From: a virus | Lineage: Duplodnaviria; Caudoviricetes | Virus record (IMG/VR): IMGVR_UViG_3300045980_000043 | Span: 1-29,323 of that record | Reading direction: 5' to 3' (one strand) | Length of the DNA: 29,323 bases | Shown here: positions 8,437 to 29,323 of the stretch, piece after piece | How positions within the stretch are numbered: position 1 is the stretch's first letter | How the letters are laid out: each line of letters begins with the position of its first letter | Made by a program: the position numbers and the translations under genes | Notes under the pieces: generated by a model | Databases searched by the model: none | Seen by the model: only the letters and a program-made list of their open reading frames with translations | Told to the model about the DNA's origin: nothing

Positions 8437-8438
8437 CC

Positions 8439-8795: not shown

Positions 8796-8808
8796 GAAGG
8801 AGTCACAC

Positions 8809-10016: not shown

Positions 10017-10029
10017 GAGAGGAGACGCG

Positions 10030-11182: not shown

Positions 11183-11190
11183 GAGCCGCC

Positions 11191-11682: not shown

Positions 11683-12209
11683 GGGTCATCGGCGGCGACG
11701 ACATCATCCGCGCGCTCGAAGCGCAGCTGAAGGCGAACGTGCCCCTCGTGATCGAGGCTCTCGGCCTCGGGCACCTCGGCGAGGTGAAGACCTGGCAGAT
11801 GGTGCCCTCACCGGAAGCGATCGCCGCCGCGCAGCTGCCGGCTGTCGCGCTCGTGTCCCCATCCATGAACTCGAAGCCGTACCGCTCCCGCGGACAGCAG
11901 ACCGGGACATGGCAGGTCTCCGCCGGCATCTTCGCGCGCGGCGGCGACCACGAGCAGACGCAGACGCAGATTCAGGCGTGGGTGAAGGTGCTGCGCACCG
12001 CGGCGCTACTGACCCCGCTCACCGACACCGGCATCTCGCTGACGTGGGTCGGTGAGGCGTACGACGTGCTCGCCACCAAGCAAGAGGCCCGCACCATCGC
12101 CGGCGGCGAGGTGCAGTTCGACGCGCACGTCGACGTCGCTCTCGACCTCACCGACCTCCCAAACCTCCCACCCCTCCGCTCTGTCCACACAGACGTCCAA
12201 CCCCATTAA
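11679..12209 (+). CDS. putative tail terminator
   Basis: GTGA overlap; directly upstream of sheath; QLPAVALVS motif. Confidence 0.55.
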   Translation: MRVIGGDDIIRALEAQLKANVPLVIEALGLGHLGEVKTWQMVPSPEAIAAAQLPAVALVSPSMNSKPYRSRGQQTGTWQVSAGIFARGGDHEQTQTQIQAWVKVLRTAALLTPLTDTGISLTWVGEAYDVLATKQEARTIAGGEVQFDAHVDVALDLTDLPNLPPLRSVHTDVQPH

Positions 12210-12221
12210 GGAGACCCCACC

Positions 12222-13331: not shown

Positions 13332-13348
13332 CCGGAAAGGAACAGGAC

Positions 13349-13756
13349 ATGGCAACCAACGCTCACGCCATCGTCACCGCGTCGCTGGACGGCAAGTCGC
13401 TCGGCGTGTGGGACACCCGCGCCGGTGGCGAGTCCACCGCCGCGGTCAACAAGTACCGGCCCGGCGGCAGCCGGCAGCGCGTCGCCGACGCCGGCCACCC
13501 CGACGCGGGAGACGTGACCATCACGCGCCGCTTCGACCCCGCACGAGACATCGACGTCGTGCGGCTCCTGCGCACGCGCGTCGGCCTCGGTGTCCTGAAG
13601 GTCACCGAGCAGCCCACCGACGTCGACGGCATCGCCTTCGGCAAGCCGACGACCTGGACGGGTCGTCTCTCCTCCGCCACCGGCGGAGATTCCGATTCCA
13701 ACAGCGACGACATTCGCATGATCACGGCGACCATGGTCGTCACGGGAGTGGTGTGA
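13349..13756 (+). CDS. tail tube protein
   Basis: Follows sheath; GGE....KYRPGG, GDVTITR, DSNS motifs; GGAAAGGA RBS. Confidence 0.8.
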   Translation: MATNAHAIVTASLDGKSLGVWDTRAGGESTAAVNKYRPGGSRQRVADAGHPDAGDVTITRRFDPARDIDVVRLLRTRVGLGVLKVTEQPTDVDGIAFGKPTTWTGRLSSATGGDSDSNSDDIRMITATMVVTGVV

Positions 13757-14268
13757 TGACCGACAACTACAACGACGACTTCGACGCCGAGCAGCACAGC
13801 GGCCAGGTCGACGCGGCGCCTTCCTCGCCCCTGGCGGGCCTGCGCGCGCAGCGTCAGGAGATCCGGGAGAAGCTGCACCTGGATCTGCGCGTGCCGCGCT
13901 ACGAGGACGACGTCTTCGTGCGGTACTCGCCGCCCACGCAGGCGCAGATCAAGCGCCACACCGAGCGGGCCAAGAAGACCCGCGGCGGGGACACCGGCGC
14001 ATTCGTCGAGACGCTCGTGCTCGCCGAGTGCTGCCAGGGCGTGTTCCAGAAGAACGCCTCCGGCGAGCCGATCGGGTCGCCGGAGGAGTGGCCGAAGTTC
14101 GACGCCGACCTCGCGGAGTACCTCGGCGCGCCCGAGGCCAAGCGGGCTGTCGATGTGGTGAAGGCGCTGTACTTCACCGACGGCGACATCATCAGCACCG
14201 CCGCTGGTCTCATGAAGTGGGCCGGCTTCGCGGACGAGCAGGTCGCTGAGGAGTACGAGGGAAACTAG
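13756..14268 (+). CDS. tail assembly chaperone
   Basis: Between tube and tape measure; ends in slippery G GGA AAC. Confidence 0.8.
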   Translation: MTDNYNDDFDAEQHSGQVDAAPSSPLAGLRAQRQEIREKLHLDLRVPRYEDDVFVRYSPPTQAQIKRHTERAKKTRGGDTGAFVETLVLAECCQGVFQKNASGEPIGSPEEWPKFDADLAEYLGAPEAKRAVDVVKALYFTDGDIISTAAGLMKWAGFADEQVAEEYEGN

Positions 14269-14513
14269 CCGGCCACCCCGCCGTCAGAGCGGCGGCGGTG
14301 GCCGGTCTCGCGGGCCGTGACCCGCTGAGCTTCCTCGCGCTCGAGGCGGACGACTTCCGCCTCGAGAACCTCATCATCCAGGAACAGCTCCGCATCGAAG
14401 ACGAGCGTGCACGCGCGTGGATCGAGTACCTCGCGAAGTACATGAGCCAACTCACGTCGGGGTCCATTCTGCGCGGCGTCTCGCGCATCGTCGCATCGCT
14501 GTTCCGGCGGTGA
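14259..14513 (+). CDS. -1 frameshift extension of the tail assembly chaperone (gpGT-like)
   Basis: GGGAAAC at 14259-14265 just before TAG; the -1 frame stays open to 14513. Confidence 0.8.
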   Translation, partial: GKLAGHPAVRAAAVAGLAGRDPLSFLALEADDFRLENLIIQEQLRIEDERARAWIEYLAKYMSQLTSGSILRGVSRIVASLFRR

Positions 14514-14534
14514 TCGTGCAAGGAGGTGCGAGCG

Positions 14535-17500
14535 ATGGCTGTTGTGCTGCTCACGTTCCGCACCTCCGGCACGGCCCGCGCGGCGAAGCAGGCCCGCGAG
14601 GTGGGCGCCGGTCTCGATGACGCGTCCAAGAAGGTCGCCGACGGCGCCCGGAAGATGAGCACCTTCGCCACGGGCATCAGCTCGATCACGGACAAGATCT
14701 TCCCCTTCGACACCGGGGTAGGGAAGATCGCCAAGCGGCTGCAGGACTTCGCCACGGGCCTCGCCAGCGGTGAGAGGACGCTGCCGGCATGGCAGCGCGG
14801 CCTCATGAAGGCCGCCGACGGGGTCCGCGCGGTCGGCTCGAAGATCGCGACGAAGTTCGGCGAGGGCATCAAGGCCGCCGCCACCGGCATCGTCGCGACC
14901 GCGGCCGGCGCGCTCGGCACCGCCCTCGTCAAGGGCCTGGGCCGCCTCAAGGCGCTCGACCAGGCCACGAACAAGCTCGACGGTCTCGGCCACTCGGCCG
15001 AGACCGTCGACCAGATCATGAAGGACTCCCTCGCCTCGGTGAAGGGCACGGCCTTCGGGATGGACGACGCCGCCACCGTCGCGGCCTCCGCCGTCGCCGC
15101 CGGCATCAAGCCGGGGCAGGAGCTGGAGCGCACCCTCAAGCTCGTCGCCGACGCCTCGACGATCGCCGGCACCGACATGGGGTCGATGGGCGCGATCTTC
15201 AACAAGGTCGCCGCCAGCAACAAGGTGCAGATGGATGTCATCAACCAGCTGCACGACGCCGGCGTCCCCGCCCTCGCGTCCCTCGCCGACCACATGGGCG
15301 TCACCGCGGAGGAAGCCTCCAAGATGGCCTCCCGCGGCGAGATCGACTTCGCGACCTTCCAAGCCGCGATGGAGGGCGCCCTCGGCGGCGCGGCCGCATC
15401 CAGCGGCAACACCTTCTCGGGCGCCATGGCGAACGTCATGGCCTCCCTCGGCCGCATCGGAGCGGGCATCCTCGGCGGCGTCTTCCCGAAGCTCGCCCCG
15501 CTCTTCCAGTCCCTCACGACCGCGCTCGGACCGCTCGAAGACAAGGCCGCCCAGATCGGCGAGCTCATCGGCTCCAAGCTCGCCCCGGTGATCGAATGGC
15601 TCACCGACGCCCTCTCCGGCGGGCTCGGCGAGTTCAAGATCGCCCCCCAGATCATCGCGCCCCTCACCGCGGCCTTCCTCGCCCTCGGCTCCAGCGGACT
15701 CGGCCCCCTGATCGGTATGATCCCCGGTCTCAGGCGTTTCGGCGGGGCACTCGGCGGCCTTGCTGGTGGCCCGTTCCTCGCCGTCGCGGCGTTCGCCGGG
15801 CTCGTCGCCGTCTCGCCCGAGCTGCGCGAGGCGCTCGGGACGCTCCTGTCGGCCGTGACCGCGGCGGGCTCCGAGCTCGCCCCCGTCCTCGCCGAGGTGG
15901 GCGAGCTCATCAGCAGCGCCCTTGTCTCCGCCATCGAGATCGCCGTGCCGGTGATCTCGACCATCGTGACCGCGCTCGCCGACTTCATCACGTGGATGAC
16001 CGAGAGTGGCGCGCTGGTCGATTCCCTCACGGTGATCCTCGGCGTGGGTGTCGGCGCGTGGGTGGCGTTCAAGGTCGCCGTCGCGGGCATCTCGTTCGCG
16101 AACTTCCTCTTCGGGATCGGGGCGGCCACCGTCGCGAAGACGAAGGACATCGCTGTGACCACGGCGATCGTCGCGCTGTATGCGAAGGACCTCGTCATAT
16201 CGCTCGCCAAGGGCGCGGCCTCGATCGCCGCGACCACGGCGGGCTGGGTGGCGAGCACCGCCGCTCAGGTCGCGTCGCGTGTCGCTCTGGTGGCAGGCAC
16301 GGTCGCGACGGGAGCGGCGACGGCCGCGCAGTGGGCGTTCAACGCGGCGCTCAACGCGTCCCCGCTCATGTGGATCGTTACCGCGATCGGCGCGGTTGTG
16401 GCGGCGCTGGTGTGGTTCTTCACGCAGACCGAGCTCGGCCAGCAGATCTGGTCGTCGGTGATGGACGCGATCGGCACGGCCGCGACGTGGGTGTGGGAGT
16501 CGATCCTGAAGCCCGTCTTCGGCGCGATCGGCGATTGGTTCGAAGCGACCGTCGAGCGCGTGCGCCTCGGCGTCGACCTGGTGCGGAACTTCTTCCGCTT
16601 CTGGGGCGCCGTGGCCGTGTGGCTGTGGGAGAACGCGATCCAGCCCGTCCTCGGGTGGATCGGTGAGAAGTTCACCGAGGTCACCGCGTGGATCGGCGAG
16701 AAGGTCGAGCTCATCAAGCTCGGCCTCGAGCTGTTCGGGCAGGTCGTCGTCGCTCTCTGGCAGGTGTACGTCCAGCCGGCTCTCGATCAGATCGGGGCCG
16801 CTTTCCTCTGGCTCTGGGAGTTCGGCATCAAGCCGGTCATCGACTTCGTCATCGCCGGCTTCCGCTTCTGGGGCGAGGGTTTCGTCTGGCTCTACGAGTC
16901 GGTGATCCTCCCCGTCGGAGACTGGATCCGGGGCGTGTTCGACAACATCGGGCTCGCGCTGAGTCTCCTCGGGTTCGCTTTCACGTTCGTGTACGAGCAG
17001 TACATCAAGCCGGCGTGGGAGCGGGTCGGCCAGCTCCTCCTGGCGGGATGGAACTTCGTCGACGAGCACGTCTTCGCGCCGTTCGGCCGTGGCATCGACC
17101 TGCTCGTCGAGGGCTTCAAGATCGGCGCGTCCGCGATCGGCACCGCCTGGGAGGGCATCAAGTCCGCCGCGGCGATCCCGATCAACTTCGTGCTTGGCAC
17201 GATCTGGAACGACGGCCTCCGGAGCTTCTGGAACGACGTCGTCACCGAGCTCGGTCTCGAGGACATGAAGCTCAAGAAGGCGCCGCTGATCAAGTTCGCC
17301 GACGGCACCGAGAACCACGTCGCGCAGATCGCCCCCGCCGGGGCGATGCGCCTGTGGGCGGAGCCGGAGACTGGCGGCGAGGCGTACATCCCCCTCGCCG
17401 ACGCGAAGCGGGGCCGCTCGACGGCGATCCTCGCCGACGTCGCCGACCGGTTCGGGTACTCGCTCACCGCGTACGCGGACGGGGGAGTGGACGCCGGGGC

Positions 17501-18410
17501 GTCGGGGAACTGGTTCACCGACACCTGGGACAACATCGCCAGCTTCGGCGGCGACGTCCTCGACAACATCCGGGGCGCTGCGGAAGCCGCGTGGGGGTTC
17601 GTGACCGATCCGATCGGGTCGGTGCAGCGGTCCATCATCGACGGCATCATCAAGCCGCTCCTCGGAGACGACGGGAATGTGTTCCTGCGCACCGTGGGGC
17701 AACTGCCCATCAACATCGCGAAGGGACTCGGCGAGAAGGTCGCCGACTTCTTCGGAGGGATGGGCGGCGGTGAGCCCTCCGACCTCGCCCCGCAGGGCGG
17801 GGCCGGGATGGGCTGGCAAGCGATGTGGCGCATCGTGCAGGGGGCGATCCCCGGCGCGGTGATGACGTCGAACTACCGGCCGGGGTCGATCACCGTCAAC
17901 GGCGGTCAGTCGTACCACGCTCTCGGGCGTGCGATCGACCTGATCCCCGCGACGATGGACACCTTCAACAAGGTCGCCGCGCTGTTCCCGTCGGCGCGGG
18001 AGCTGATCTTCTCCCCGGCCGGGGGCAGGCAGCTCCTCAACGGGCAGCCCCACTTCTGGGGCGGCGCGGTCCGCGCGCAGCACTGGGATCACGTGCACGT
18101 CGCCATGCGCGACGGTGGCGTGCTTCCGATGCTCGCCCGCGGCGGCCCGGTCAAGAAGGGCGAGGAGTACATCGTCGGCGACGGCGGTCGGCCCGAGCTG
18201 TTCGTGCCGGGTGCTGACGGCTACGTGTATCCGTCGGTGCCGGCCACGCCGGGCTACTCCGACGCCGATATCGACGCCTCGCTCGACGAGCTCGACGTGC
18301 AGGTCGGGCCCCGCGGCGACCGGACCATCGTCCGCGTCGTCACGATCGACGGCAAGGTCCTCCTCGAGGAGGTCTTCGACGAGGCAGCAGACGAGGAGGC
18401 GCGCCTGTGA
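14535..18410 (+). CDS. tape measure protein with C-terminal putative Zn-peptidase (M15/Hedgehog-like) domain
   Basis: ~1290 aa; VKGTAFG...A tape-measure motif; periodic W/F helical repeats; SYH..GRAID...HWDHVHVA motif; AAGGAGG RBS. Confidence 0.92.
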   Translation: MAVVLLTFRTSGTARAAKQAREVGAGLDDASKKVADGARKMSTFATGISSITDKIFPFDTGVGKIAKRLQDFATGLASGERTLPAWQRGLMKAADGVRAVGSKIATKFGEGIKAAATGIVATAAGALGTALVKGLGRLKALDQATNKLDGLGHSAETVDQIMKDSLASVKGTAFGMDDAATVAASAVAAGIKPGQELERTLKLVADASTIAGTDMGSMGAIFNKVAASNKVQMDVINQLHDAGVPALASLADHMGVTAEEASKMASRGEIDFATFQAAMEGALGGAAASSGNTFSGAMANVMASLGRIGAGILGGVFPKLAPLFQSLTTALGPLEDKAAQIGELIGSKLAPVIEWLTDALSGGLGEFKIAPQIIAPLTAAFLALGSSGLGPLIGMIPGLRRFGGALGGLAGGPFLAVAAFAGLVAVSPELREALGTLLSAVTAAGSELAPVLAEVGELISSALVSAIEIAVPVISTIVTALADFITWMTESGALVDSLTVILGVGVGAWVAFKVAVAGISFANFLFGIGAATVAKTKDIAVTTAIVALYAKDLVISLAKGAASIAATTAGWVASTAAQVASRVALVAGTVATGAATAAQWAFNAALNASPLMWIVTAIGAVVAALVWFFTQTELGQQIWSSVMDAIGTAATWVWESILKPVFGAIGDWFEATVERVRLGVDLVRNFFRFWGAVAVWLWENAIQPVLGWIGEKFTEVTAWIGEKVELIKLGLELFGQVVVALWQVYVQPALDQIGAAFLWLWEFGIKPVIDFVIAGFRFWGEGFVWLYESVILPVGDWIRGVFDNIGLALSLLGFAFTFVYEQYIKPAWERVGQLLLAGWNFVDEHVFAPFGRGIDLLVEGFKIGASAIGTAWEGIKSAAAIPINFVLGTIWNDGLRSFWNDVVTELGLEDMKLKKAPLIKFADGTENHVAQIAPAGAMRLWAEPETGGEAYIPLADAKRGRSTAILADVADRFGYSLTAYADGGVDAGASGNWFTDTWDNIASFGGDVLDNIRGAAEAAWGFVTDPIGSVQRSIIDGIIKPLLGDDGNVFLRTVGQLPINIAKGLGEKVADFFGGMGGGEPSDLAPQGGAGMGWQAMWRIVQGAIPGAVMTSNYRPGSITVNGGQSYHALGRAIDLIPATMDTFNKVAALFPSARELIFSPAGGRQLLNGQPHFWGGAVRAQHWDHVHVAMRDGGVLPMLARGGPVKKGEEYIVGDGGRPELFVPGADGYVYPSVPATPGYSDADIDASLDELDVQVGPRGDRTIVRVVTIDGKVLLEEVFDEAADEEARL

Positions 18411-18916
18411 GCGAGCAGTTGGACGTGACGATCTCCCGGGCGATCCCCGGGAGACCGTCGATGACGCTCAAGCTGATCGGCCAGGACAAGCTCACCGGCG
18501 GCGTCGGCGGGTGGAAGGAGGTCTCGCGGAAGCTCCGCGAGCCCCTCCTGGTGTGGACCGAGCAGCCGCTGCGCGTCTACACCCTCCCGCTGCGCTTCGA
18601 CCGCGCCGACTGGGAGCAGGGAAACGCGACCGTCGAGGGCGAGATCCGGGGCCTGCAGGACTGGGGCGCCGCCGGCCGCCCCAGCTCGGGCGCATACGTC
18701 GACCCCACCCTCGTCACCGTCTCCGGGAACGTCCGCGTGCCCCGGTCGATCCGGTGGGCGATCACCGGGCTCGACTGGGGCGACTTCATCACCGGCCGTG
18801 ACGGGCAGCGCATCCAGCAGGACGTGACCGTCACCCTCACCGAGCGGGCCAACGCGTCCGCGAAGGGCTACGCCGACGCCCTCCGCGAAGCGCTCGGCGA
18901 GGACACCGACATGTGA
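18407..18916 (+). CDS. putative tube initiator/baseplate protein
   Basis: Follows tape measure; W.IT.LDWG...G.RI.Q..TVTLTE motif. Confidence 0.6.
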   Translation: MSEQLDVTISRAIPGRPSMTLKLIGQDKLTGGVGGWKEVSRKLREPLLVWTEQPLRVYTLPLRFDRADWEQGNATVEGEIRGLQDWGAAGRPSSGAYVDPTLVTVSGNVRVPRSIRWAITGLDWGDFITGRDGQRIQQDVTVTLTERANASAKGYADALREALGEDTDM

Positions 18917-18923
18917 CAGGGGG

Positions 18924-19718
18924 GTGAGCGTGAAGGCATCAGAGCTCACCCTCACCACCCCCGCCGGCACGGCTCGCCTCGACCTCGTCGCCGCCGCCGA
19001 GAGCGCCCGCATCCGCACCCGCGTGCTCGGCGCCTCCACCCTCGAAGTCCGCCTGCCCGAGCGGATGCTCACCGCATCCCTCCTCGACGCCCGCACCGCG
19101 GCCGCAGCCGGACGCGACTGGTCCTTCGTCGCGATCCGACGCGAACGGGGCACCGACATCATCCGACTCGTCTACGAGGACCACCTCGTCGCCGCACTCC
19201 GCGCCCAGCGCGGACGGCTTATGTACCAGGTGCCGCTCTCAGCGGCCACCATCATCACCCGCTTCTGCAACGAGGCCGGCGTCCCCGTCGACGTCGACCC
19301 CGTGCTCGGCGAGCAGCTCGTCGAAGGCGCCGGCCGGTCCCTGCTGGAGACCACCGACTCCTGGCGCGAGATCAGCGCGCTCGCCGCCCGACTCGGCGGC
19401 CGCGTCTACTCCGACGGCACGCGGATCATCTTCGCCACCGACGACACCCTCCTCGCCCGCGGCGACGCGGCCCGCGTGACGAGCTCACGCGGGCACGTGC
19501 TCGGCGACATCGGCTTCCAGATCGACATTGCCCAGACCCACGAGCGCGCCGAGTTCGACGTCGCCGCCACCTGGGCTGCTGACGCCGGCACCTCCGTCCA
19601 CCTCACCCGCAGCGGCCCCGCCGACGGTCGATGGCTCGTCGCTGAATGGATCCGCGACGTCCCCCACACCGGCGTTGGACGCGTTCGCCTGACCCGACCC
19701 ACCACGATCGGAGTGTGA
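18924..19718 (+). CDS. putative baseplate hub (gpD/gp27-like)
   Basis: Position; DSWREI..LAARLG, GPADGRWLV motifs. Confidence 0.6.
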   Translation: MSVKASELTLTTPAGTARLDLVAAAESARIRTRVLGASTLEVRLPERMLTASLLDARTAAAAGRDWSFVAIRRERGTDIIRLVYEDHLVAALRAQRGRLMYQVPLSAATIITRFCNEAGVPVDVDPVLGEQLVEGAGRSLLETTDSWREISALAARLGGRVYSDGTRIIFATDDTLLARGDAARVTSSRGHVLGDIGFQIDIAQTHERAEFDVAATWAADAGTSVHLTRSGPADGRWLVAEWIRDVPHTGVGRVRLTRPTTIGV

Positions 19719-19721
19719 CCC

Positions 19722-20906
19722 ATGGCTTGGGAGCCGCTGCCCCTGCCCGTCGATGAGAGCCAGATCATCACGGACATCCTCACCGGCCTCGCCAGCAAGA
19801 TCCCCGGGTGGATGCCCACCGAAGGCGCCCCCGAAGTCGCGCTCGCCGAGGAGATCGGACACCAGCTCGCGGCCGTGAACCGCGCGGCTGTGAACGCGGC
19901 CGACTACGCGGCCGCGGGGGTCGCCGCGGCGTTCGGGTTCGAACCGATCGCGGGGACGAAGGCAGTGCTGCCGGCGGTGACGCTCACCGCCCAACTACCG
20001 CCATCGGTCGGTACGGCCCCGTTCTCGCGGGCCGTGACCGTGCCGGCGGCATTCACCATCGCCGCATCGGGACAGCCGTTCGTGCTGCCGGCGCAGCTGA
20101 CGAAGGTCGCCGCGTTCACGCAGGTCACCGAGGGCGACTTCACCGGGTACTGGCGCGGCGACATCCAAGCCGACTTCGTCGCATACGACGCCGGCGACGA
20201 ATGGAACCTCGGCACCGCCGGCGACGCCGCGTCGATCCAGACCGTGTCGCCGGTGATCATCGCCGCGACCCTCACCGCGGCCGCCACCGGCGGCGAAGGA
20301 CCTGAGACGCTGCAGGCCTTCCTCTCGCGCTTCACCGCGTGGCTGGCGACCCTCAAGCCGGGCGGTGTGCGCGCGGCTGATCTGGCGGCGTTCGCCGCAA
20401 CCGTGCCCGGCGTGCGCCGGGCACTCGCGCTGGACCGCTACGACCCGCAGGCGCCGACGGTGCCCGCTGACCGCACGGTCACGATCATCCCCGTCAACGC
20501 GGCCGGCGGGAACCTCGCCGAGCTCGAAGTCGACCGGCTCCGCTCCGCGCTGGAGCGCATCCGCGAGGTCGGCTTCATCTTCCACATCATCGACCCCGTG
20601 CGCACCGCCGTGTCGGTGGACGTGACCGTGAGTACCGCGCCCACGCACGAGCCCGCTGCGGTGCGCGCGGCCGTTGCCGCGGCGGTCGAGGCCGCGCTGT
20701 CGCCGGCAGCGTGGGGCAGCAGCGGGGACCCGGCCACATGGAAGGAGAACCGCACGCTGCGCGTCCTCGACGTCGCCGTGCTCGTCGCCCCCGTGCCCGG
20801 CGTCGCCGCGATCGGATCGATCACCCTCAACGGCGGCACAGGCGACGTCACCCTCGCCGGCCCCGGCGCCCTCATCACCCCGACCGTCACGGTGACCGCG
20901 TCATGA
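19722..20906 (+). CDS. baseplate J/gp47-like wedge protein
   Basis: EGAPE..LAE, GDEWN, ATGGEGPET, VPGVRRA motifs. Confidence 0.85.
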   Translation: MAWEPLPLPVDESQIITDILTGLASKIPGWMPTEGAPEVALAEEIGHQLAAVNRAAVNAADYAAAGVAAAFGFEPIAGTKAVLPAVTLTAQLPPSVGTAPFSRAVTVPAAFTIAASGQPFVLPAQLTKVAAFTQVTEGDFTGYWRGDIQADFVAYDAGDEWNLGTAGDAASIQTVSPVIIAATLTAAATGGEGPETLQAFLSRFTAWLATLKPGGVRAADLAAFAATVPGVRRALALDRYDPQAPTVPADRTVTIIPVNAAGGNLAELEVDRLRSALERIREVGFIFHIIDPVRTAVSVDVTVSTAPTHEPAAVRAAVAAAVEAALSPAAWGSSGDPATWKENRTLRVLDVAVLVAPVPGVAAIGSITLNGGTGDVTLAGPGALITPTVTVTAS

Positions 20907-21478
20907 GCGTCATCAGCGATCGCGTCATCCGCTCCCTCGGCGCGGGCTTCCGTCGCCACGCGGGGCCCCTGCTGACGCCCATGGTCGAAAGCCTCACCGG
21001 CCCCGTCGTGGAGACGGAGGAACTCACCCGACCGACCGCGGCCGGATGGGCGACGATGTTCGACCTCGATAGCACGATCCCGGTGTGGATCGGGCAGCTC
21101 GTCGGCGTCATCATCGACCCGACGCTCGCCATCGAGGAGCAGCGGGAGATCATCCGCACACGCCCCGCCTGGAGGGCAGGAACGCATGGCGCGCTCATCG
21201 CGTCGCTGCGCACCGCGCTGACCGGGCAGCAGCGTGCACACATCTCCGAGCGAGACCCAGACCCCTGGCACGCGGTCATCAGCGTCTACGAGTCCGACTA
21301 TCGGGCCGGTGTGACCAGAGAAACGATCCGTGAGCTCGCCGAGCGGCACCGCCCAGCTGGCGTCACGTTCGAGTTTGTGTTCGTCCCGCCCGCCGCCTAT
21401 CAGGAAGCCGAGGACACCGCCGGCACCTACGCCGCCGCGGAGGCCACCGCCGGCACCTACGACACAGCCGAGGAGTGA
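20903..21478 (+). CDS. baseplate gpI-like/tail protein
   Basis: ATGA overlap; WIGQLVGV, QREII, RPAGV motifs. Confidence 0.7.
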   Translation: MSVISDRVIRSLGAGFRRHAGPLLTPMVESLTGPVVETEELTRPTAAGWATMFDLDSTIPVWIGQLVGVIIDPTLAIEEQREIIRTRPAWRAGTHGALIASLRTALTGQQRAHISERDPDPWHAVISVYESDYRAGVTRETIRELAERHRPAGVTFEFVFVPPAAYQEAEDTAGTYAAAEATAGTYDTAEE

Positions 21479-21480
21479 CC

Positions 21481-22353
21481 ATGGCGACAGCAACCAGCAA
21501 GGGATTTCCCTTTCCCGAGCCGACCGACCCCGACAAGCCGCGTCTCGACATTGAAGCGCTCGCAAGGCGGCTCAACGAGATTCCCGGCATCCTCTCCGTC
21601 ACCCAGCCCGAGCGAGACACGCTGACGGATATCTGGCCGGGAATGGTCATCTTCAACACTTGGATGGGCCGCCTCGAGATCAACAAGTCCGGCGTCGCAG
21701 GCGACTGGGCATGGCTGATCGATGCGGCCATGCCCGTCCCGATCATGAACGGCGGCACCGGCCGCACGACCGCGCCGTCAATGCTCGTGGATCTTTCCGG
21801 CGTGGCGGCCGCATCGCCGTTCGTAGCCGCGCCCCGTCCCGGCGTAACGGGCATTCTCCCCATCGCCCGCGGTGGTACCGGCGTGACCAGCAACCCGACC
21901 ATGATCGTCGATCTCGGCAGCACTTCCCAGGCCTTCGTGTTCACGGGGCTTCCCCGCCCCGGCGTGACCGGCACCCTGCCGATCGCCCGCGGAGGCACGG
22001 GCCTCCAATCGCCCCCGCTGATACGAGTGGATCTCGGCAGCACCGAGCCCGTCTCCGCCATGCAAGCAGCGCCTCGTCCCGGCGTGCAGGGAGTGCTCCC
22101 CATCACGAACGGCGGCACGGGGCGAAACGTTGCTCCCGCCCTGATCGTCGACCTCGGCAGCACCGCCGCGGCATCCCCGCTCGACGCCGAGCCGCGACCG
22201 GGCGTCGATGGCGTGCTGCCGATCGCCCGAGGCGGCACCAGCGCCACCACCACCGCCGGCGCCCGCGCCCAGCTCGGCGTGCCGTCGAAAGACGAAGTTG
22301 GCGACACGACCACGGACTTCGTCGCCATCTTCGAGACCGCGCTCGCGTCATGA
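21481..22353 (+). CDS. tail fibre with 40-aa LPIARGGTG repeats
   Basis: N-terminal GFPFP...D attachment motif; four full 120-bp repeat units plus a partial fifth. Confidence 0.75.
   Translation: MATATSKGFPFPEPTDPDKPRLDIEALARRLNEIPGILSVTQPERDTLTDIWPGMVIFNTWMGRLEINKSGVAGDWAWLIDAAMPVPIMNGGTGRTTAPSMLVDLSGVAAASPFVAAPRPGVTGILPIARGGTGVTSNPTMIVDLGSTSQAFVFTGLPRPGVTGTLPIARGGTGLQSPPLIRVDLGSTEPVSAMQAAPRPGVQGVLPITNGGTGRNVAPALIVDLGSTAAASPLDAEPRPGVDGVLPIARGGTSATTTAGARAQLGVPSKDEVGDTTTDFVAIFETALAS
21733..22245 (+). repeat. coding tandem repeat, 120-bp period
   Basis: Units xLPIxxGGTGxxxxPxxxVDLxxxxxxxxxxxxPRPGVxG; similar sequence recurs at 21781, 21901, 22021 and 22141. Confidence 0.85.
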
Positions 22354-22592
22354 CGCTCGAAGACCTCGTGCGCCGACGGGCGCCGGCCGTTCCGCTCGCC
22401 CCGACGGACGCGGTCATCACCGCGGTCAGCGAGGCGGGCGTGCTCGCCACCCCGATCGGGCAGTCCTCCGACCACCCCGTAGGCCCCTGCCGCGGGCCCC
22501 GCACGGTCGGAGGGCGGCCGATCGCCCCCGGCGCCCACGTGCTCCTCGTCTTCACTACGTCGGGCCCGTGGATCGTCTCCGTCGACGAATAG
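22350..22592 (+). CDS. small protein, possible minimal OB-fold baseplate spike (gpV/gp5 N-terminal-like)
   Basis: 80 aa, ATGA overlap; AVITAV...GP...PGAHVLLVF...PWI pattern. Confidence 0.5.
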   Translation: MTLEDLVRRRAPAVPLAPTDAVITAVSEAGVLATPIGQSSDHPVGPCRGPRTVGGRPIAPGAHVLLVFTTSGPWIVSVDE

Positions 22593-22601
22593 GAACTGCA
22601 C

Positions 22602-22907
22602 ATGGCCGTCACCCTCCGCCTGCCGCTAGAAGTCGCCCCTGCCGGCGGGCTGCGCACCCTCAGCCAGGACAGCCCCGCCGAGCTCGCCCAGTCCGTCCGC
22701 TCGCTCCTCTCCACCACGGTGGGGGAGCGCGGCGCCCTGCTCGACTACGGCATCATCGACCAGCTCGGATCCGTCGCCGTCGACGCCGGCGACATCGCCC
22801 TCGCGATCGCGGAATGGGAACCCCGCGTCCAGGAGCCCGCCACCAGCACCATCGCCACCACGCTCGCCGACGGAGCCCCCCTGTCGACGATCACCGTGAT
22901 CATCTGA
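22602..22907 (+). CDS. gp25/gpW-like baseplate protein
   Basis: V..LL.T..GER....DYGI and WEPRV motifs. Confidence 0.8.
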   Translation: MAVTLRLPLEVAPAGGLRTLSQDSPAELAQSVRSLLSTTVGERGALLDYGIIDQLGSVAVDAGDIALAIAEWEPRVQEPATSTIATTLADGAPLSTITVII

Positions 22908-22920
22908 AAGGACCCCGGCC

Positions 22921-24496: not shown

Positions 24497-25053
24497 GCTT
24501 CATCGGCAAGCTCCGCGGGGGCGCGTCGGTCTCCCTCGGTCCGCAGCAGTTGTCCTGGGCGCGCCTGGTCGCCCAGGAGGCCGCGCGGGTCACGGGCGGG
24601 CACCGGGGTGCGCTGATCGCCGCGCTGATCACCGTGGGTGTCGAGACGGGCTTCCGGATGTACGCGAACCGCGGCAACCCCCGGTCGCTGCAGCTCCCGC
24701 ACGACGCGGTTGGCCAGGACCACGACTCGGTCGGCTTGTTCCAGCAGCGCCCCGCTTCCGGCTGGGGGACGACGGACCAGCTCATGACCGTGGCCTACTC
24801 GACGCGTGCGTTCCTCGGCGGCGCCCACGGCCCCAACCAGGGCGACCCGCGCGGCCTGCTCGACATCCCCGGGTGGGAGACCATGCCGCTGGGCCGGGCC
24901 GCGCAGGCCGTGCAGGTGTCCGCGTTCCCCGACCGGTACGAGCAGTGGGTGCCCGTCGCCGAAGCACTCGTCGACCGCTTCGGGATCCTGCGACGGGTGG
25001 ATGATGATCCGCCGCCGCGGCACGAGTTCCGGTCGTGGCCGGGAGGTGGATGA
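24493..25053 (+). CDS. stand-alone lysozyme-like/lytic transglycosylase-like protein
   Basis: VETG, DHDSVGLFQQRP..GWG, AAQAVQVSAFPDRY motifs; ATGA overlap. Confidence 0.7.
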   Translation: MSFIGKLRGGASVSLGPQQLSWARLVAQEAARVTGGHRGALIAALITVGVETGFRMYANRGNPRSLQLPHDAVGQDHDSVGLFQQRPASGWGTTDQLMTVAYSTRAFLGGAHGPNQGDPRGLLDIPGWETMPLGRAAQAVQVSAFPDRYEQWVPVAEALVDRFGILRRVDDDPPPRHEFRSWPGGG

Positions 25054-25481
25054 TGCGCCGGCTGAAGCGGATGTGGGAGGCGATCAAGGAGCCTCGGCAC
25101 CTGAAGATCGCCTACCTCGTGATCTACGGTGTCACCATCGCGATCGGAGTCGCCACCCTCGTGCGTCCCCCGCAGTCGATCGAGGGTCCGCTCGGATCGT
25201 TCTCCACGATGCTCTGGGCGGCCCTGTTCGTCTTCGGCGGAGCAGTCGGGATGGTCACCGTGCTGCCCGGTTGGTGGTGGGCCGAGAGGCTCCTCGCGAT
25301 CGCGCCGGTGTTCATCGGGCTGGCGATCTATCTCGCCGTGGTGATCATCCTCCACGTCCAGGGCCTCGAATCGGGCGCGTCCCGGCTGACGCAGATCGGG
25401 ATCATCGTGCTCGCCTCGGGCCCGTTCACCCTCCGCGGCTTGCTGATCCGGGAGTACAGCTACGAACCGCGGCGGGGGTGA
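25050..25481 (+). CDS. membrane protein with about 4 TM segments (lysis cassette)
   Basis: Four hydrophobic stretches; GGAGG RBS. Confidence 0.75.
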   Translation: MMRRLKRMWEAIKEPRHLKIAYLVIYGVTIAIGVATLVRPPQSIEGPLGSFSTMLWAALFVFGGAVGMVTVLPGWWWAERLLAIAPVFIGLAIYLAVVIILHVQGLESGASRLTQIGIIVLASGPFTLRGLLIREYSYEPRRG

Positions 25482-25484
25482 GAG

Positions 25485-25781
25485 ATGGACGCCGCGACAG
25501 TCGCCTCCCTGATAGGCGCCGCTGGGGGCGGGGCGATCCTCCTCGAGCTCACCAAGCGTCTCCTCGACGCTCTCACAGGCCGCGGCCTCAAGCGGCGAGA
25601 CGAGGTGGACCGGGCATGGTCTCGCGCCGACCGTGAGGCCCGCAACCGACGCATCGCGGAAGAGCATGCCTCACGCCTGCGCCGCATGCTGATCGCCGCG
25701 CCGTGCGTCGCCCCGGAAGAGATCCCCGACTACCCGACCTACGGGCACACCAGCCCGACACCGACCACGAAGGAGTCCTGA
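25485..25781 (+). CDS. single-TM protein with charged coiled-coil tail (lysis cassette)
   Basis: Hydrophobic N-terminus with GAAGGG, then R/E-rich helix. Confidence 0.7.
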   Translation: MDAATVASLIGAAGGGAILLELTKRLLDALTGRGLKRRDEVDRAWSRADREARNRRIAEEHASRLRRMLIAAPCVAPEEIPDYPTYGHTSPTPTTKES

Positions 25782-26080
25782 TGGACATCACCCTCCCCAC
25801 CATTCCCGCCGGCGTGCTCGTGCTGCTCGGCATCGTCTCGCCTTGGGCGCAGGCGCTGCTGCAGCGTTTCATCGACGTCAGCCCGCTCCTCAAGAAGACC
25901 ATCTCGGTCGCACTCAGCCTCCTGCTCACCGCGATCGTGCTCGCCTTCTACTACGTCTACACCGGCGACGTCGTCCCCGAGTGGCCCGTCCTCGTGCTGC
26001 TGACCATAGTCGTCGCGCAGGCCTCCTACGCGCTCATCGCACGCGATGCCGGCGCGAAGGCCATCGAGCAGCGCGAGTAG
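25781..26080 (+). CDS. putative holin (about 3 TM)
   Basis: AAGGAG RBS, TGATG coupling; three hydrophobic segments, charged C-terminus. Confidence 0.7.
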   Translation: MDITLPTIPAGVLVLLGIVSPWAQALLQRFIDVSPLLKKTISVALSLLLTAIVLAFYYVYTGDVVPEWPVLVLLTIVVAQASYALIARDAGAKAIEQRE

Positions 26081-26095
26081 GCTCCGCCCCCACAT

Positions 26096-26167
26096 GCCGC
26101 CCCTCCTGGGTGAGCTTCCGACGCCATTATGGCGGCGAGCTCCCCGGGAGGGGCGGTTTCGTCGTGC
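26096..26167. terminator. long hairpin, probable bidirectional terminator between lysis operon and convergent cassette
   Basis: GCCGCCCCTCCTGGG...GAGCT...CGCCA-TTA-TGGCG...GAGCTC...CCCGGGAGGGGCGGT then TTCGTCGT. Confidence 0.7.
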
Positions 26168-26184
26168 ACGCGCGTGACGACGGT

Positions 26185-26330
26185 GGGGTCATCCCCGCAG
26201 AGGCGGGGAGCTGGCCTGTGTGCAACGGAACCGAAAGCCACACTCGGATCATCCCCGCGGGGCGGGGAGTCATTCGTGCTGTAGACAGATCCCGAGAACA
26301 GTGGATCATCCCCGCAGGGGCGGGGCTATG
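26185..26330 (-). CRISPR. orphan mini-array of three degenerate type I-E-like repeats with two spacers (about 31 and 29 nt)
   Basis: Plus-strand copies GGGGTCATCCCCGCAGAGGCGGGGAGCTG (26185-26213), CGGATCATCCCCGCGGGGCGGGGAGTCA (26245-26272), TGGATCATCCCCGCAGGGGCGGGGCTATG (26302-26330); minus strand reads CCCCGC-loop-GCGGGG then ATGA(T/C)CCN, as in actinobacterial I-E repeats. Confidence 0.8.
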
Positions 26331-26991
26331 CGGGGAGTGTAGCCGGCGCGTCGGGAGCACTGTCAAGCGTGCGGGCGAGGGCGGCGATGTACCAGCCCCG
26401 CGGGCGCGGCCCGTCAGGGATCGTGTCTTCGGTGAGGCGTGCGGCGTCGGCGGCGTGCTCGGCGATGAGCCGGTCAAGATCACCCAGTACGGAAGCCTTC
26501 ACCGCGGACTGTCCCCCCTCCCACCGTCGCACGGTGCGCGGATTCACGCCGAGAGCGTCGGCAAGCTCCTCGTAGGTGAGGCCGAGGAGGTGCCGGCGGG
26601 CCGCGAAGCCGGCGGCGCTGACCGCGGGGGCGGGCAGGCGGGTGGAGCCGAGGGAGTCGACCAGGCCTGTCGGCTCGTACCCGGCGGGGATCTTCCCGGC
26701 GAGGTCGTGCAGCCACCGGTCGAGGGTGAGGGAGTCATGGCCGAGGTCACGGCGGTAGGCGTGGGCGCGGACACGGATCGTGTCGTGCGCGTCGAGGTCG
26801 ATCCCGTACGCCTCCGCTTCGGCGAGCTTGCGCTGTCGGCCGGCCTCGCTCATCCCCTCCAGTACCTGTCGGCGTGTCCGGGCGGCGCGGCACTCGATCG
26901 TCCAGGTCTTGCTGCCCCACCGGGTCACGGTGGGGGCTTCGGTGATCCCGGCGCCCTCGAAGATCGCGCGCAGCTGGTCGGTGGCGGGCAT
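26326..26991 (-). CDS. Aca2/YdiL (DUF1870)-like HTH regulator with ~120-aa N-terminal domain of unknown function
   Basis: C-terminal SAAGFAARRHLLGLTYEELADALGVNPRTVRRWEGGQ...DLDRL...PRGWYIAALAR; TGATG coupling to upstream gene. Confidence 0.75.
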   Translation of the reverse strand: MPATDQLRAIFEGAGITEAPTVTRWGSKTWTIECRAARTRRQVLEGMSEAGRQRKLAEAEAYGIDLDAHDTIRVRAHAYRRDLGHDSLTLDRWLHDLAGKIPAGYEPTGLVDSLGSTRLPAPAVSAAGFAARRHLLGLTYEELADALGVNPRTVRRWEGGQSAVKASVLGDLDRLIAEHAADAARLTEDTIPDGPRPRGWYIAALARTLDSAPDAPATLPA

Positions 26992-27359
26992 CAGCGGGCC
27001 TCCTCGCGGTCGATGCGGGTGCCGTCGCTGTACACGTCGGTGTATCGGCCGTCGCCGTGGTAGATGGTCCGGTCGAGGCGGGCGGGTCCGGCAGCAGCCT
27101 CGGCGGCCTCCATCTCGGTGATCCATGCGGCCTGCTCGGTCGCTGCCGCCAGGGCCTCGGCCGCGGCCTGCTCGGTGCGGAAGGTGGGTGCGGCAAACCA
27201 GTGCTGGGGGATGGGCTCGTGGTGGGTGAGGGACTCCACGAGGGCACGGAAGTCGGCGCTGTCGCAGCGAACCTGCCACACCTCGGTGGGCTGGTCGATC
27301 ATCTCGCGGCTCAGGCCGGCTTCGATGGGGAGTCGGGTGATGGTGGCGGTGGTGTTCAT
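26991..27359 (-). CDS. small acidic hypothetical protein, candidate anti-CRISPR
   Basis: 122 aa, about 21 D/E versus 11 R and no K; first gene behind a consensus promoter and upstream of the Aca-like gene; function inferred from context only. Confidence 0.65.
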   Translation of the reverse strand: MNTTATITRLPIEAGLSREMIDQPTEVWQVRCDSADFRALVESLTHHEPIPQHWFAAPTFRTEQAAAEALAAATEQAAWITEMEAAEAAAGPARLDRTIYHGDGRYTDVYSDGTRIDREEAR

Positions 27360-27410
27360 CGGAGTCTCTTTCCGGTAGCGGCTGGGCCTCGTGCCCTGCC
27401 TGATACCATC

Positions 27411-27439
27411 ATCATATGCCCTAAAAGGGGACATTGCAA
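27411..27439 (-). promoter_or_regulatory. sigma-A promoter TTGCAA-N17-TATGAT with an imperfect inverted repeat between the hexamers
   Basis: Minus strand reads TTGCAA TGTCCCCTTTTAGGGCA TATGAT. Confidence 0.8.
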
Positions 27440-27473
27440 GCCCGAGGCGCAGTTGGGTCCCCGCTGGTCTCGC

Positions 27474-27502
27474 TTGCACAATGCATTGCGAGTGTGTATA
27501 GT
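27474..27502 (+). promoter_or_regulatory. divergent sigma-A promoter TTGCAC-N17-TATAGT (extended -10)
   Basis: TTGCAC AATGCATTGCGAGTGTG TATAGT; palindrome CAATGCATTG at 27479-27488. Confidence 0.8.
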
Positions 27503-27532
27503 GGAGGTAACAACTACAGAGAGGAGGTGAAC

Positions 27533-27661
27533 ATGGAACACCCACTGGACGGGCTAGGAGCACTCTTCGGAGGCCTCGGAACCCTCGCCCTCGGAATCGC
27601 CGCCATCATCTCGGCAGCGAAATCGAAACCGAGGAAGAAGCGGAAGAAGAAGCGCCGCTAG
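27533..27661 (+). CDS. 42-aa membrane peptide with poly-basic tail
   Basis: AGGAGGTGA RBS; MEHPLDGLGALFGGLGTLALGIAAIISAAKSKPRKKRKKKRR. Confidence 0.75.
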   Translation: MEHPLDGLGALFGGLGTLALGIAAIISAAKSKPRKKRKKKRR

Positions 27662-27668
27662 CCTGAAG

Positions 27669-27701
27669 GGGGATGGAGATAAGGCAAGTATCTCCATCCC
27701 C
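27669..27701. other. perfect 13-bp intercistronic hairpin
   Basis: GGGGATGGAGATA-AGGCAAG-TATCTCCATCCCC. Confidence 0.7.
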
Positions 27702-27726
27702 TCCCTTCCAGTGTTCCAGGATCATC

Positions 27727-27882
27727 ATGAATATGGCAACGAAACTGGCCGCGGCGACCCTCGCCGCGGCGTCCGCGACGGTCTCCTTCGCGACCGGCAA
27801 CACCTGGCCCGGCCTCCTCGCGGTGGCCGCCGCCGGACTCATCGTGCTGAACGCGATCCGGTGGCGGAAGGAAGAATCGTGA
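27727..27882 (+). CDS. small two-TM membrane protein
   Basis: MNMATKLAAATLAAASATVSFATGNTWPGLLAVAAAGLIVLNAIRWRKEES. Confidence 0.6.
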   Translation: MNMATKLAAATLAAASATVSFATGNTWPGLLAVAAAGLIVLNAIRWRKEES

Positions 27883-28061
27883 CGGCACGCTATCTCTCCC
27901 GCGCCGAGCTGGCCGAGCGAATCGGCGTGAAGTCCGCGAGCCTTGGCCGATACAGGTTGCCCGAGCCGGACGCGATGATCGGCGACATTCGCGGGTGGTT
28001 GCCCGAGACCGTGGACGCGTGGAACGCCTCGCGCCCCGGCCGTGGGCAGTGGGGCCCGTGA
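27879..28061 (+). CDS. small AlpA/excisionase-like HTH DNA-binding protein
   Basis: YLSRAELAERIGVK...LPEPD..IG..RGW.PETVDAWNASRPGRG; GTGA overlap. Confidence 0.75.
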   Translation: MTARYLSRAELAERIGVKSASLGRYRLPEPDAMIGDIRGWLPETVDAWNASRPGRGQWGP

Positions 28062-28072
28062 TCTCACGCACT

Positions 28073-28116
28073 ACCGCCCCTCTCGGCTTCGGCTGGGAGG
28101 GGCAGTTTCGTCGCGC
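28073..28116. terminator. intrinsic terminator with C(UUCG)G tetraloop
   Basis: GCCCCTCTCGGC-TTCG-GCTGGGAGGGGC then AGTTTCGTCG; lies between convergent genes. Confidence 0.75.
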
Positions 28117-28121
28117 CAGGG

Positions 28122-28274
28122 TCACTCGCCCGGCAGCACGAGCCCCTCGGCCCACTCGATGTCGCATCCCCGGCACCACCATCCCCGCGGATGCCAGTGC
28201 AGCACCGTGCCACATGACGGGCAATGCGGCTCGACGACGTCGGCGAGGAGATCGCGGGGCCGCTCAGGGCTCAT
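28122..28274 (-). CDS. 50-aa Zn-ribbon protein
   Basis: CPSCG...WWCRGC; ATGA overlap with the SRAP stop codon. Confidence 0.7.
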   Translation of the reverse strand: MSPERPRDLLADVVEPHCPSCGTVLHWHPRGWWCRGCDIEWAEGLVLPGE

Positions 28275-28918
28275 GTCGGCTCGATGAGCGAGGGGTCGGA
28301 CGGGTCGACGCGCTGCACGGAGTTGACCTTGCTGTCGACGATGTGCGTGCGCAGGGTGCCCGCGACGGTGTCGGACACGTCGGTGAGCATCTGCTGCAGC
28401 CCGGCATCGCCCGGGCCGGTGAGCCAGTCGTCCCACGCCTCGGCGGGCAGGAAAGCGGGCATGCGGTCGTGGACCTCGCCTGAGGCGTCGCGGGCCTCGC
28501 GGGTGATGACGGCGAATCGCGGCGCGCCGTCGACGTCGCGCCACAGGCCCGCGGCGGTGAGGAGCCCGTCCCCGTGGATGAAATGCGCCGTCTTCGGGGA
28601 CCTCGCGCCGGTCCATTCGTAGTACCCCGTCATGGGTATGAGAGCGCGCCGCTCCCGGAACGACGGTGCCCACCATCCGCTGCCGAGCTTCTCGAGCCTC
28701 GCGTTGATCCCCGGTCGGCCGTGAGCTGCCGCCGGCATGGGGAGGTCCCATCCGGCGAGCACGAGCTCGCGCGCCTCGTCGTGCCGCCGCACGATCGGCG
28801 CGGGGTCGGTCGGCGCGATCGAGTACGACGGCCGCCAGTCCTGCGGCCGCCCTCCCTGGGCGACGTACTCCCGGATGAGCTCGTCGGTCTCGGCGCTGAG
28901 CGCGAATCTGCCGCACAT
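28271..28918 (-). CDS. SOS response-associated peptidase (SRAP/YedK/HMCES family)
   Basis: N-terminal MCGRF; INARLE, GYYEW, VHDRMP, V..KVNS motifs. Confidence 0.93.
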   Translation of the reverse strand: MCGRFALSAETDELIREYVAQGGRPQDWRPSYSIAPTDPAPIVRRHDEARELVLAGWDLPMPAAAHGRPGINARLEKLGSGWWAPSFRERRALIPMTGYYEWTGARSPKTAHFIHGDGLLTAAGLWRDVDGAPRFAVITREARDASGEVHDRMPAFLPAEAWDDWLTGPGDAGLQQMLTDVSDTVAGTLRTHIVDSKVNSVQRVDPSDPSLIEPT

Positions 28919-28931
28919 GCCGCCCAGTGTC

Positions 28932-29276
28932 TCACTCTCGGTCGGGTCCGCGATAGGTCCGCTGGTACCCGGTCGGGGGCGGTGCGGAGTGCGGACGCCA
29001 GGCGAGCGCCTGCCGTCCGGCCTTCACGCCTCGCTCCGTCCCGGGGTGAGCTTTGATCGCGTCCACGAGCACGGCCATCTCCGCATTTCCCTCGTTGAGG
29101 CCGGCCCACCGGCCGGCCTCTTCGGCGAGCAGGTCCGTCCGGTCCCCGGCGATCTCCCGTAGCTCCGCGAGGGCCGCGGCCGGGTCGGTGTCGAGGGCGT
29201 GCCGCTTGCAGCAGGAGGCGAGCGTGATCCGGAGGTGGGCTTCTGCGGGACTGACGCCGCTTCGTCTCTGAGCCAT
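28932..29276 (-). CDS. hypothetical protein, probably leaderless
   Basis: ATG 6 nt downstream of a TACGCT -10 box; no SD sequence. Confidence 0.65.
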   Translation of the reverse strand: MAQRRSGVSPAEAHLRITLASCCKRHALDTDPAAALAELREIAGDRTDLLAEEAGRWAGLNEGNAEMAVLVDAIKAHPGTERGVKAGRQALAWRPHSAPPPTGYQRTYRGPDRE

Positions 29277-29282
29277 GCGGGG

Positions 29283-29304
29283 AGCGTACGCCGCCCCACC
29301 GACA
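29283..29304 (-). promoter_or_regulatory. PafBC-dependent (RecA-NDp) DNA-damage promoter
   Basis: Minus strand TGTCGG-TGGGGCGGCG-TACGCT matches TGTCGG-N10-TAnnnT. Confidence 0.7.
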
Positions 29305-29323
29305 GCACGCCCCATCGGCTAGG

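Follow-up and report, generated by a model that had tools for sequence, protein, structure and literature searches.

A candidate two-promoter anti-CRISPR cassette combining an Aca2-like fusion protein with a type I-E mini-array in a phage probably of the Microbacterium group

The 29,323-nucleotide stretch of DNA analysed here (the window), which is an entire virus record, carries on its minus strand a short cassette in which an aca2-type operon runs directly into a type I-E CRISPR mini-array. We put at about even the chance that this is an anti-CRISPR cassette with two promoters, carried by a phage of the Microbacterium group and directed against host type I-E systems. The cassette is a combination of known kinds, an aca2-type operon and a viral I-E mini-array; new in it are a candidate Acr domain and a separate predicted array promoter. 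Its features are as follows.

27411..27439, minus: P1 promoter, TTGCAA-17-TATGAT (promoter scan)
27434-27416, minus: imperfect inverted repeat in P1, predicted Aca2-type operator
27360..27400, minus: 5' leader with two predicted hairpins, a predicted Aca2 RNA-binding motif (folding, z -2.04)
26991..27359, minus: ORF1 (P0001), 122-aa acidic protein (pI 4.7) in the variable acr slot
26638..26991, minus: ORF2 N-terminal domain (N-domain), residues 1-118, candidate Acr (homology and context)
26326..26637, minus: ORF2 C-terminal Aca2-like HTH domain, P0002 residues 119-221 (profile and structure searches)
26336..26366, minus: P2, predicted internal array promoter, TTGACA-19-TACACT, in the last codons of ORF2
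26303..26330, minus: repeat 1, with a degenerate 5' arm over the stop codon and an intact stem and handle
26273..26301, minus: spacer 1, 29 nt (predicted 57-nt RNA)
26246..26272, minus: repeat 2, with a 3-nt loop, one base short
26214..26244, minus: spacer 2, 31 nt (predicted 60-nt RNA)
26186..26213, minus: repeat 3, with an intact handle
26097..26156, no strand assigned: strong hairpin separating the cassette from the convergent lysis genes (z -4.78; 0 of 200 shuffles as stable)

A preliminary description of the same sequence had noted much of this layout, and the following parts of it were reproduced: a consensus promoter at 27439-27411, where TTGCAA-17-TATGAT is present on the minus strand; an acidic 122-aa ORF at 27359-26991; a translationally coupled 221-aa ORF with a terminal HTH (ORF2, P0002, 26991-26326, minus strand), which overlaps ORF1 in the sequence TGATG and whose residues 131-172 form an XRE-type HTH; and the lack of cas genes in the window, with a cas family in 0 of the 23 ORFs scanned (196 ORFs were listed).

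The plus strand of the window carries terminase, portal, protease, capsid, sheath, tape-measure and baseplate genes, and the cassette lies on the minus strand directly past putative lysis genes. A prophage in genome G602 showed 67-76% identity to the window across much of 8106-22914, with further similarity at 26299-26980, 27353-27433 and 28278-28922. G602 belongs to the sample taken from the genus of G106, and the purL gene of G106 shares 87% identity with that in the record of Microbacterium phage Min1. From the prophage likeness and the purL identity, the host is probably Microbacterium or a close relative. A search against Rfam gave chance-level matches (best E 0.71).

Upstream of the cassette, a divergent plus-strand unit (27434-28061) consists of two short hydrophobic ORFs and a small HTH gene (phrog_597), and its promoter-like site (27475-27502) stands back to back with P1. 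An SRAP (SOS response-associated peptidase) gene occupies 28271-28918 on the minus strand, and in G602 it is also found upstream of the cassette. Two terminator-like hairpins flanking the cassette region have at their foot a 22-nt sequence that is 91% identical between the copies (28095-28116 and 26146-26167). Contigs from several runs carried a variant allele with clustered substitutions at 28136-28868, which suggests that those communities held the phage in at least two forms.

Profile and structure searches placed the C-terminal domain of ORF2 with Aca2, as had been expected from the preliminary description. In an HTH-family profile search, Aca2 structures ranked first (7ezy, 8w35 and 7vjo, E 2e-5 to 4e-5; 7b5j, 4e-4), and the top two Foldseek rows with P0002 were Aca2, though at no better than E 0.007. 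The VIA structure comparison ranked Aca10 (Z 9.6, 57 aligned, rmsd 1.1) above Aca2 (Z 8.3, 70 aligned, rmsd 1.9) and returned 7elm at Z 5.8, a generic HTH likeness to the AcrIF24 locus. P0002 by itself scored 14.4 bits with the Pfam model Aca2_YdiL, below the cut-off of 23.8; its relatives P0010 and P0016 were above the Pfam Aca2 cut-off. The HTH domain thus has the sequence or structural homology to Aca2 (PF08965) by which Aca2 proteins are assigned. One full-length homolog of P0002 was found, P0004 (58%), which the source names Microbacterium betulae; it was counted together with the G602 gene as a single observation, because the two are possibly the same sequence. The 23 other matches mostly covered the C-terminal 36-52% and carried other fusions. 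P0002 and its alignment had no confirmed relatives among viral contigs. A Foldseek match of the P0002 model to a protein of Corynebacterium phage Dina (E 7.9e-7, TM 0.37, rmsd 20) was absent from tblastn.

The promoter region also agreed with Aca control. Three promoter-like sites were found in 25000-29323, compared with 0.1 expected. The P1-type layout was present in 11 other HTH operons, and all 12 have a TTG -35 box, with a palindrome in the interval up to the -10 box, and a predicted hairpin in the leader; the longest perfect palindrome arm is 3-8 bp (4 bp in the window), and the small upstream genes differ in each operon. Leader hairpin 1 (27400-27380) has a conserved shape, a similar hairpin being predicted in 12 of 12 leaders folded, and leader hairpin 2 (27374-27360) is predicted to cover the likely ribosome-binding site. 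Both marks of an aca2 operon, an inverted repeat across the promoter and a conserved leader hairpin, are therefore present, the window palindrome being imperfect. PMC13551039 describes the same promoter-palindrome and leader layout for aca2 operons and states that an actinobacterial motif had been reported before; the regulatory half of the cassette is accordingly of a known kind. The Aca autoregulation proposed earlier is in keeping with P1 and the leader, which match other actinobacterial aca2-type operons, and judging from this layout Aca2-type autoregulation of the P1 operon is highly likely. At L008:250-740, the leader motif was present twice within the operon, with a copy ahead of the second small ORF.

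Metatranscriptome contigs covered the whole phage thinly, structural genes included, and may be DNA; they are therefore uninformative on expression or co-transcription. Contigs of X4, X5 and X7 end at 27391-27394, close to the predicted P1 start, but since a contig of X1 spans the promoter this is no more than a weak hint.

Only its position, size and acidity make ORF1 an Acr candidate. It has three relatives, which share a C-terminal hairpin motif, HGDGRYTDxYSDG. With a model of pLDDT 84, fold searches gave a best Z of 4.6 and nothing at E 0.001 or better, and the ORF1 alignment brought up no viral contig with a confirmed relative. ORF1 could be assigned to no known family or fold, and neither ORF1 nor the N-domain of ORF2 had a named-Acr homolog in Pfam, NCBIfam and PDB, which hold only some Acrs; this agrees with the preliminary description, which recognised neither as a named Acr. 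An Atlas search gave no usable match for either. A known Acr family was matched by none of the 15 ORFs that occupy or adjoin the upstream slot in related operons. That ORF1 is an AcrIE seems unlikely.

The N-domain is a better Acr candidate than ORF1, because a stand-alone homolog lies beside a mini-array in a self-targeted prophage. This 128-aa homolog, at L194:2622-3008 in a prophage of genome G505 (the same DNA as L093), was found at E 4.9e-5 among 13,253 segments, with 27% identity over 115 columns, and sits in a small-gene operon ending at an I-E mini-array. G505 has a cas3-cas8e locus with CreR (L135) and an I-E array of 20 spacers, of which spacer 14 matches the genome's own prophage at 30 of 32 bases with an AAA PAM. 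The target lies about 14 kb from the N-domain operon in a 1024-aa gene, which we take to be the tape-measure gene. As the mismatches fall at positions 8 and 9, escape could explain the self-match, and other genes of the prophage could be the inhibitor; lysogen self-targeting with an N-domain homolog was seen in one case, G505. An I-E mini-array was present at all three distinct N-domain loci, which makes the N-domain the best candidate for a new AcrIE. From homology and context, we tentatively regard it as an AcrIE, at rather less than even chances. The gene after the G505 homolog resembled the Aca2-like family weakly (hhalign E 0.092 only, with no Pfam or relevant PDB match) and was therefore not counted as Aca2.

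Homologous operons had been expected near repeats, and mini-arrays were indeed found beside those of G602, L061 and L073. In G602 the ORF2 fusion recurs with a two-repeat array of period 59 no more than 10 nt behind it and with the same hairpin; two ORFs unrelated to the window's occupy its upstream slot. A pattern for short-period units matched in 4 of 271 genomes and hit G602 once, at the cassette array. In L061, a P1 and leader nearly identical to those of the window are followed by an unknown ORF, an Aca2-like gene and a two-repeat array, and L073 has the same order of promoter, unknown ORF, Aca2-like gene and mini-array. An Aca2-like HTH lay within about 2 kb in 3 of 65 viral repeat loci. 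Mini-arrays were absent from the other Aca2-like loci (L001-L040, many of them distant HTH matches on short contigs, L113-L116 and L106). The pairing of an aca2-type operon with a mini-array is thus recurrent but optional.

The repeat pattern CCCCGC-N3-5-GCGGGGAT matched three times in the window, on the minus strand at 26325-26308, 26267-26251 and 26208-26191, compared with 0.03 expected, and 0 of 100 shuffles reached three. These are the three I-E-like repeats noted earlier, and the first overlaps the ORF2 stop as had been stated: the TAG codon (26328-26326) falls within the 5' arm of repeat 1. The last 23 repeat bases resemble host I-E repeats, for example GTGCTCCCCGCCCCCGCGGGGATGATCC in L133, and the I-E assignment stands in that the repeats are of the same type as Microbacterium-group I-E arrays. 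The array units measure 57 and 60 nt, compared with 61 in most host arrays, and a third guide, folding on itself, could follow repeat 3 at 26184-26157. In its make-up the array matches Cracr arrays, being borne by a phage, with degenerate copies of the host repeat type, short spacers and cas genes absent; it is not the solitary repeat unit of a Racr, since there are three repeats. The terminator of the preliminary description was borne out in part. The strong hairpin (26156-26097) exists, is conserved in L112 and is likely a two-way terminator; its T-rich tail, however, is on the plus (lysis-gene) strand and a consensus scan gave no terminator there, so that we infer termination on the minus strand.

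Other viral I-E mini-arrays (L041-L105) showed features of their own. In many the period is 49-50 or about 55 nt, which falls short of 61 by two Cas7 steps or one. Successive spacers repeat one seed in L041, L062, L072 and L078, and TGTTTCA recurs in a spacer of each of L046, L065 and L094.

Related hosts, to which the preliminary description had pointed, do have type I-E cas genes, rarely: 11 of 401 genomes in the genus sample and 19 of 381 in the family. CreR-like two-repeat elements precede cas8e in four host loci (L131, L135, L137 and L138). Used as positive controls, these CreR guides all (4 of 4) found their own cas8e promoter, with an AAG, AAT or AAC PAM. L139 also has a host CreR-like element upstream of cas8e or cas3, with a visible promoter target and an AAN PAM. 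For the three guides of the window and the L112 guide, no PAM-plus-seed targets above shuffles were found in 32 + 7 cas8e loci, a set of 39 that did not include the phage's true host. This search was of limited power, because each CreR target is specific to its own genome. When 119 viral guides were compared with the 39 loci, 3 matched, as against 10 of 357 shuffles; viral guides therefore showed no target enrichment. The handle plus spacer-1 seed was absent from viral contigs. In the opposite direction, 1238 host spacer entries (both orientations, partly redundant) gave a best match of 6 mismatches in 30 to the window, and the 20 G505 spacers had no match in it.

The closest likeness was between spacer 1 and the L137 CreR guide, which are alike at 10 of the first 12 nt and differ at positions 5 and 10; spacer 1 also differs from the L137 promoter itself at these two positions. 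None of 624 other host spacers reached 10 of 12 to the L137 CreR. With about a dozen comparisons made (p roughly 0.02, an estimate), the likeness is suggestive only. Cracr RNAs are defined by at least 9 PAM-proximal bases shared with a host CreR/CreA guide or target, and the best value for the window is 10 of 12 with two mismatches.

Solitary cas8e genes were also observed. L141:6221-8500 (G344:C14) and L180:5790-8150 (G720:C1:1354502) each hold a divergent one (472 and 476 aa) over the TIGR02547 cut-off, with two small ORFs ahead and an I-E mini-array directly after. The L141 guide matches host cas8e coding sequences (L132, L133 and L138) over 12-15 contiguous positions with an AAT or AAC PAM, and two guides of L180 contain TTGACA. 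These loci may be prophage-borne Cas8e with guides silencing host cas8e. In L189, another solitary cas8e-like gene lies near an Aca2-like ORF.

The analysis establishes the sequence features, their homologies and the repeated occurrence of this arrangement; each step of expression, processing and inhibition that follows is our inference. P1 would fire upon infection and give ORF1 and the ORF2 fusion, whose Aca2-like domain would bind the P1 palindrome and leader hairpins and turn the operon off. Inhibition of Cascade or Cas3 would fall to the N-domain or, with lower probability, to ORF1. P2 would drive the array RNA independently of Aca repression, with early read-through from P1 adding to it. 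Host Cas6e would cut this RNA into crRNA-like RNAs of 57 and 60 nt, which would load into Cascade and displace immune crRNAs. By partial pairing beside an AAN PAM, they would also steer Cascade onto the cas promoters of particular host strains, as in Cracr-type silencing. That the array acts against type I-E by some route appears probable; that it does so by silencing cas promoters falls just short of an even prospect. In order of preference, we place Cracr-type action with titration first, pure decoy second and inter-phage targeting third.

As pure decoys, the RNAs would be Racr-like and target-less, occupying Cas6e and Cascade subunits with spacers of irrelevant sequence. This agrees with the failure to find a guide target in the 39 cas8e loci or, for spacers 1 and 2 at one mismatch, in five whole genomes, and with the spacers of the window and L112 being unrelated. 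RacrIE1 and RacrIE2 inhibit type I-E according to the available text of PMC10651486. Both spacers are predicted to be self-folding and unit 1 to pair with its own handle, but the spacers fold no better than shuffles (z -0.9 and -0.8). Moreover, Racrs are solitary repeats, whereas the window units have intact handles and closing repeats, and spacer 1 resembles a host CreR. We consider the decoy explanation unlikely, and prefer Cracr-type action with titration.

The array could instead be a weapon that borrows Cascade against rival phages or plasmids (superinfection exclusion) and happens to stand next to an anti-defence operon. Its spacers are near full length, and 10.1101/2023.03.03.530964 reports that known viral mini-array spacers mostly target other viruses. 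Against this, neither viral contigs nor phage records yielded a protospacer for spacers 1 and 2, the short units are built on degenerate repeats, and a neighbouring Acr would counteract such use. Exclusion of rivals is thus improbable beside the preferred action on host type I-E.

The preliminary description had treated the array as the mere tail of a single Aca-controlled transcript. This part was not sustained, as the predicted P2 (26366-26336), which that description had not listed, likely drives the array. The -10 box of P2 (TACACT) ends 10 nt ahead of the first stem. TTGACA occurs twice in the window, P2 is the only such pair in the 29 kb, and P2 uses the single AGT codon of ORF2. At the position of P2, L112 has TGGACC-18-TACGGT. 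A TANNNT box ending 6-16 nt before the first stem was found in 21 of 56 short viral I-E arrays, compared with a background of 2.1 (the mean of 22 upstream windows), where the 6-16 nt range was picked after inspecting the arrays and the 21 of 56 include the window itself. The 56 distinct arrays, window included, came from a collection scan that gave 65 loci, from which longer arrays, duplicates and loci with less than 300 nt upstream had been dropped. The usual promoter spacing is 16-18 bp, and that of P2, at 19 bp, is longer. With this long spacing, P2 stays a predicted promoter; the sequence evidence makes it likely that the array has one of its own, and with it the array need not depend on the Aca-repressed transcript. 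Read-through from P1 into the array is also likely, because nothing separates the ORF2 stop codon from repeat 1. That P1 is the sole source of proteins and RNAs accords with this overlap and with the lack of a terminator between gene and array, yet it is quite improbable given a promoter pair just before repeat 1 that is unique in the window and takes up the gene's only AGT codon, with a -10 box at a distance typical of viral mini-arrays and kept in L112.

Least of all do we favour proteins that counter another defence system beside an unrelated or decaying array, which is very improbable: Aca2-regulated operons hold many non-Acr genes (in the available part of PMC13551039), most homologous operons are without arrays and G602 has no cas8e match, but an I-E mini-array is found at all three distinct N-domain loci and stems and handles have been retained in the window as well as in L112.

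A bolder form of the two-promoter reading remains a long shot: the N-domain may found a new actinobacterial AcrIE family, fused to its own Aca2 repressor and partnered with a separately promoted array, whose shortened guides would silence cas promoters and escape the Acr, with the RNA arm outside Aca control and able to persist in the lysogen. We hold it similarly doubtful that an N-domain Acr and the array would form a type I-E counterpart of the AcrIF24-Cracr partnership. If the cassette acts as proposed, it would provide two inhibitor candidates for actinobacterial type I-E, one of them with self-targeting support, and a division of labour in which proteins are expressed in a burst and autorepressed and RNA inhibitors have their own promoter.

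A literature search, with supplementary candidate tables outside its scope, found no report on this locus or on any actinobacterial AcrIE. The acr-aca2 operons of PMC13551039, including the actinobacterial 'actino-motif' group, are alike in their terminal Aca2-like HTH, promoter inverted repeat, leader hairpins and variable small acidic upstream genes. They differ in that the Aca2-like domain of the window is fused to an uncharacterised 118-aa domain and followed by an I-E mini-array, and no window neighbour is a named Acr.

With Cracr and viral regulatory mini-arrays, the window shares a phage array, degenerate repeats and shortened spacers. According to the accessible text of 10.1101/2024.10.29.618823, two-spacer I-E Cracr arrays are the commonest kind, with Actinomycetota among the hosts, and one I-E Cracr array was shown to silence casA. 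At 29 and 31 nt, the window spacers exceed the 21-24 nt of the CracrIE RNAs that were tested; in the host loci compared, no CreR or cas promoter gave the match of 9 or more PAM-proximal bases that defines a Cracr, and the neighbour of the window array is an aca2-type operon. Viral mini-arrays adjoining acrIF23 and acrIF24 are described in what was available of 10.1101/2023.03.03.530964. In that acrIF23-acrIF24-CracrIF arrangement of Pseudomonas phages, a mini-array also stands directly after Acr genes, and AcrIF24 autoregulates, as the ORF2 fusion is predicted to do. It is, however, of type I-F, its sequences are unrelated save for a generic HTH, and function has been shown for the CracrIF locus and predicted for the window. 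Racrs (PMC10651486) likewise mimic repeats in phage genomes near acr genes, with I-E examples tested, but they are solitary repeat units, unlike the three-repeat array with complete guide units seen here. The host CreR elements (L131, L135, L137 and L138) have the same repeat type and are two-repeat units of non-standard length; they lie inside cas loci with a visible target, whereas the window array is phage-borne. This same-genus host circuit, with its CreR elements and AAN PAMs, offers a direct test bed for the cassette idea.
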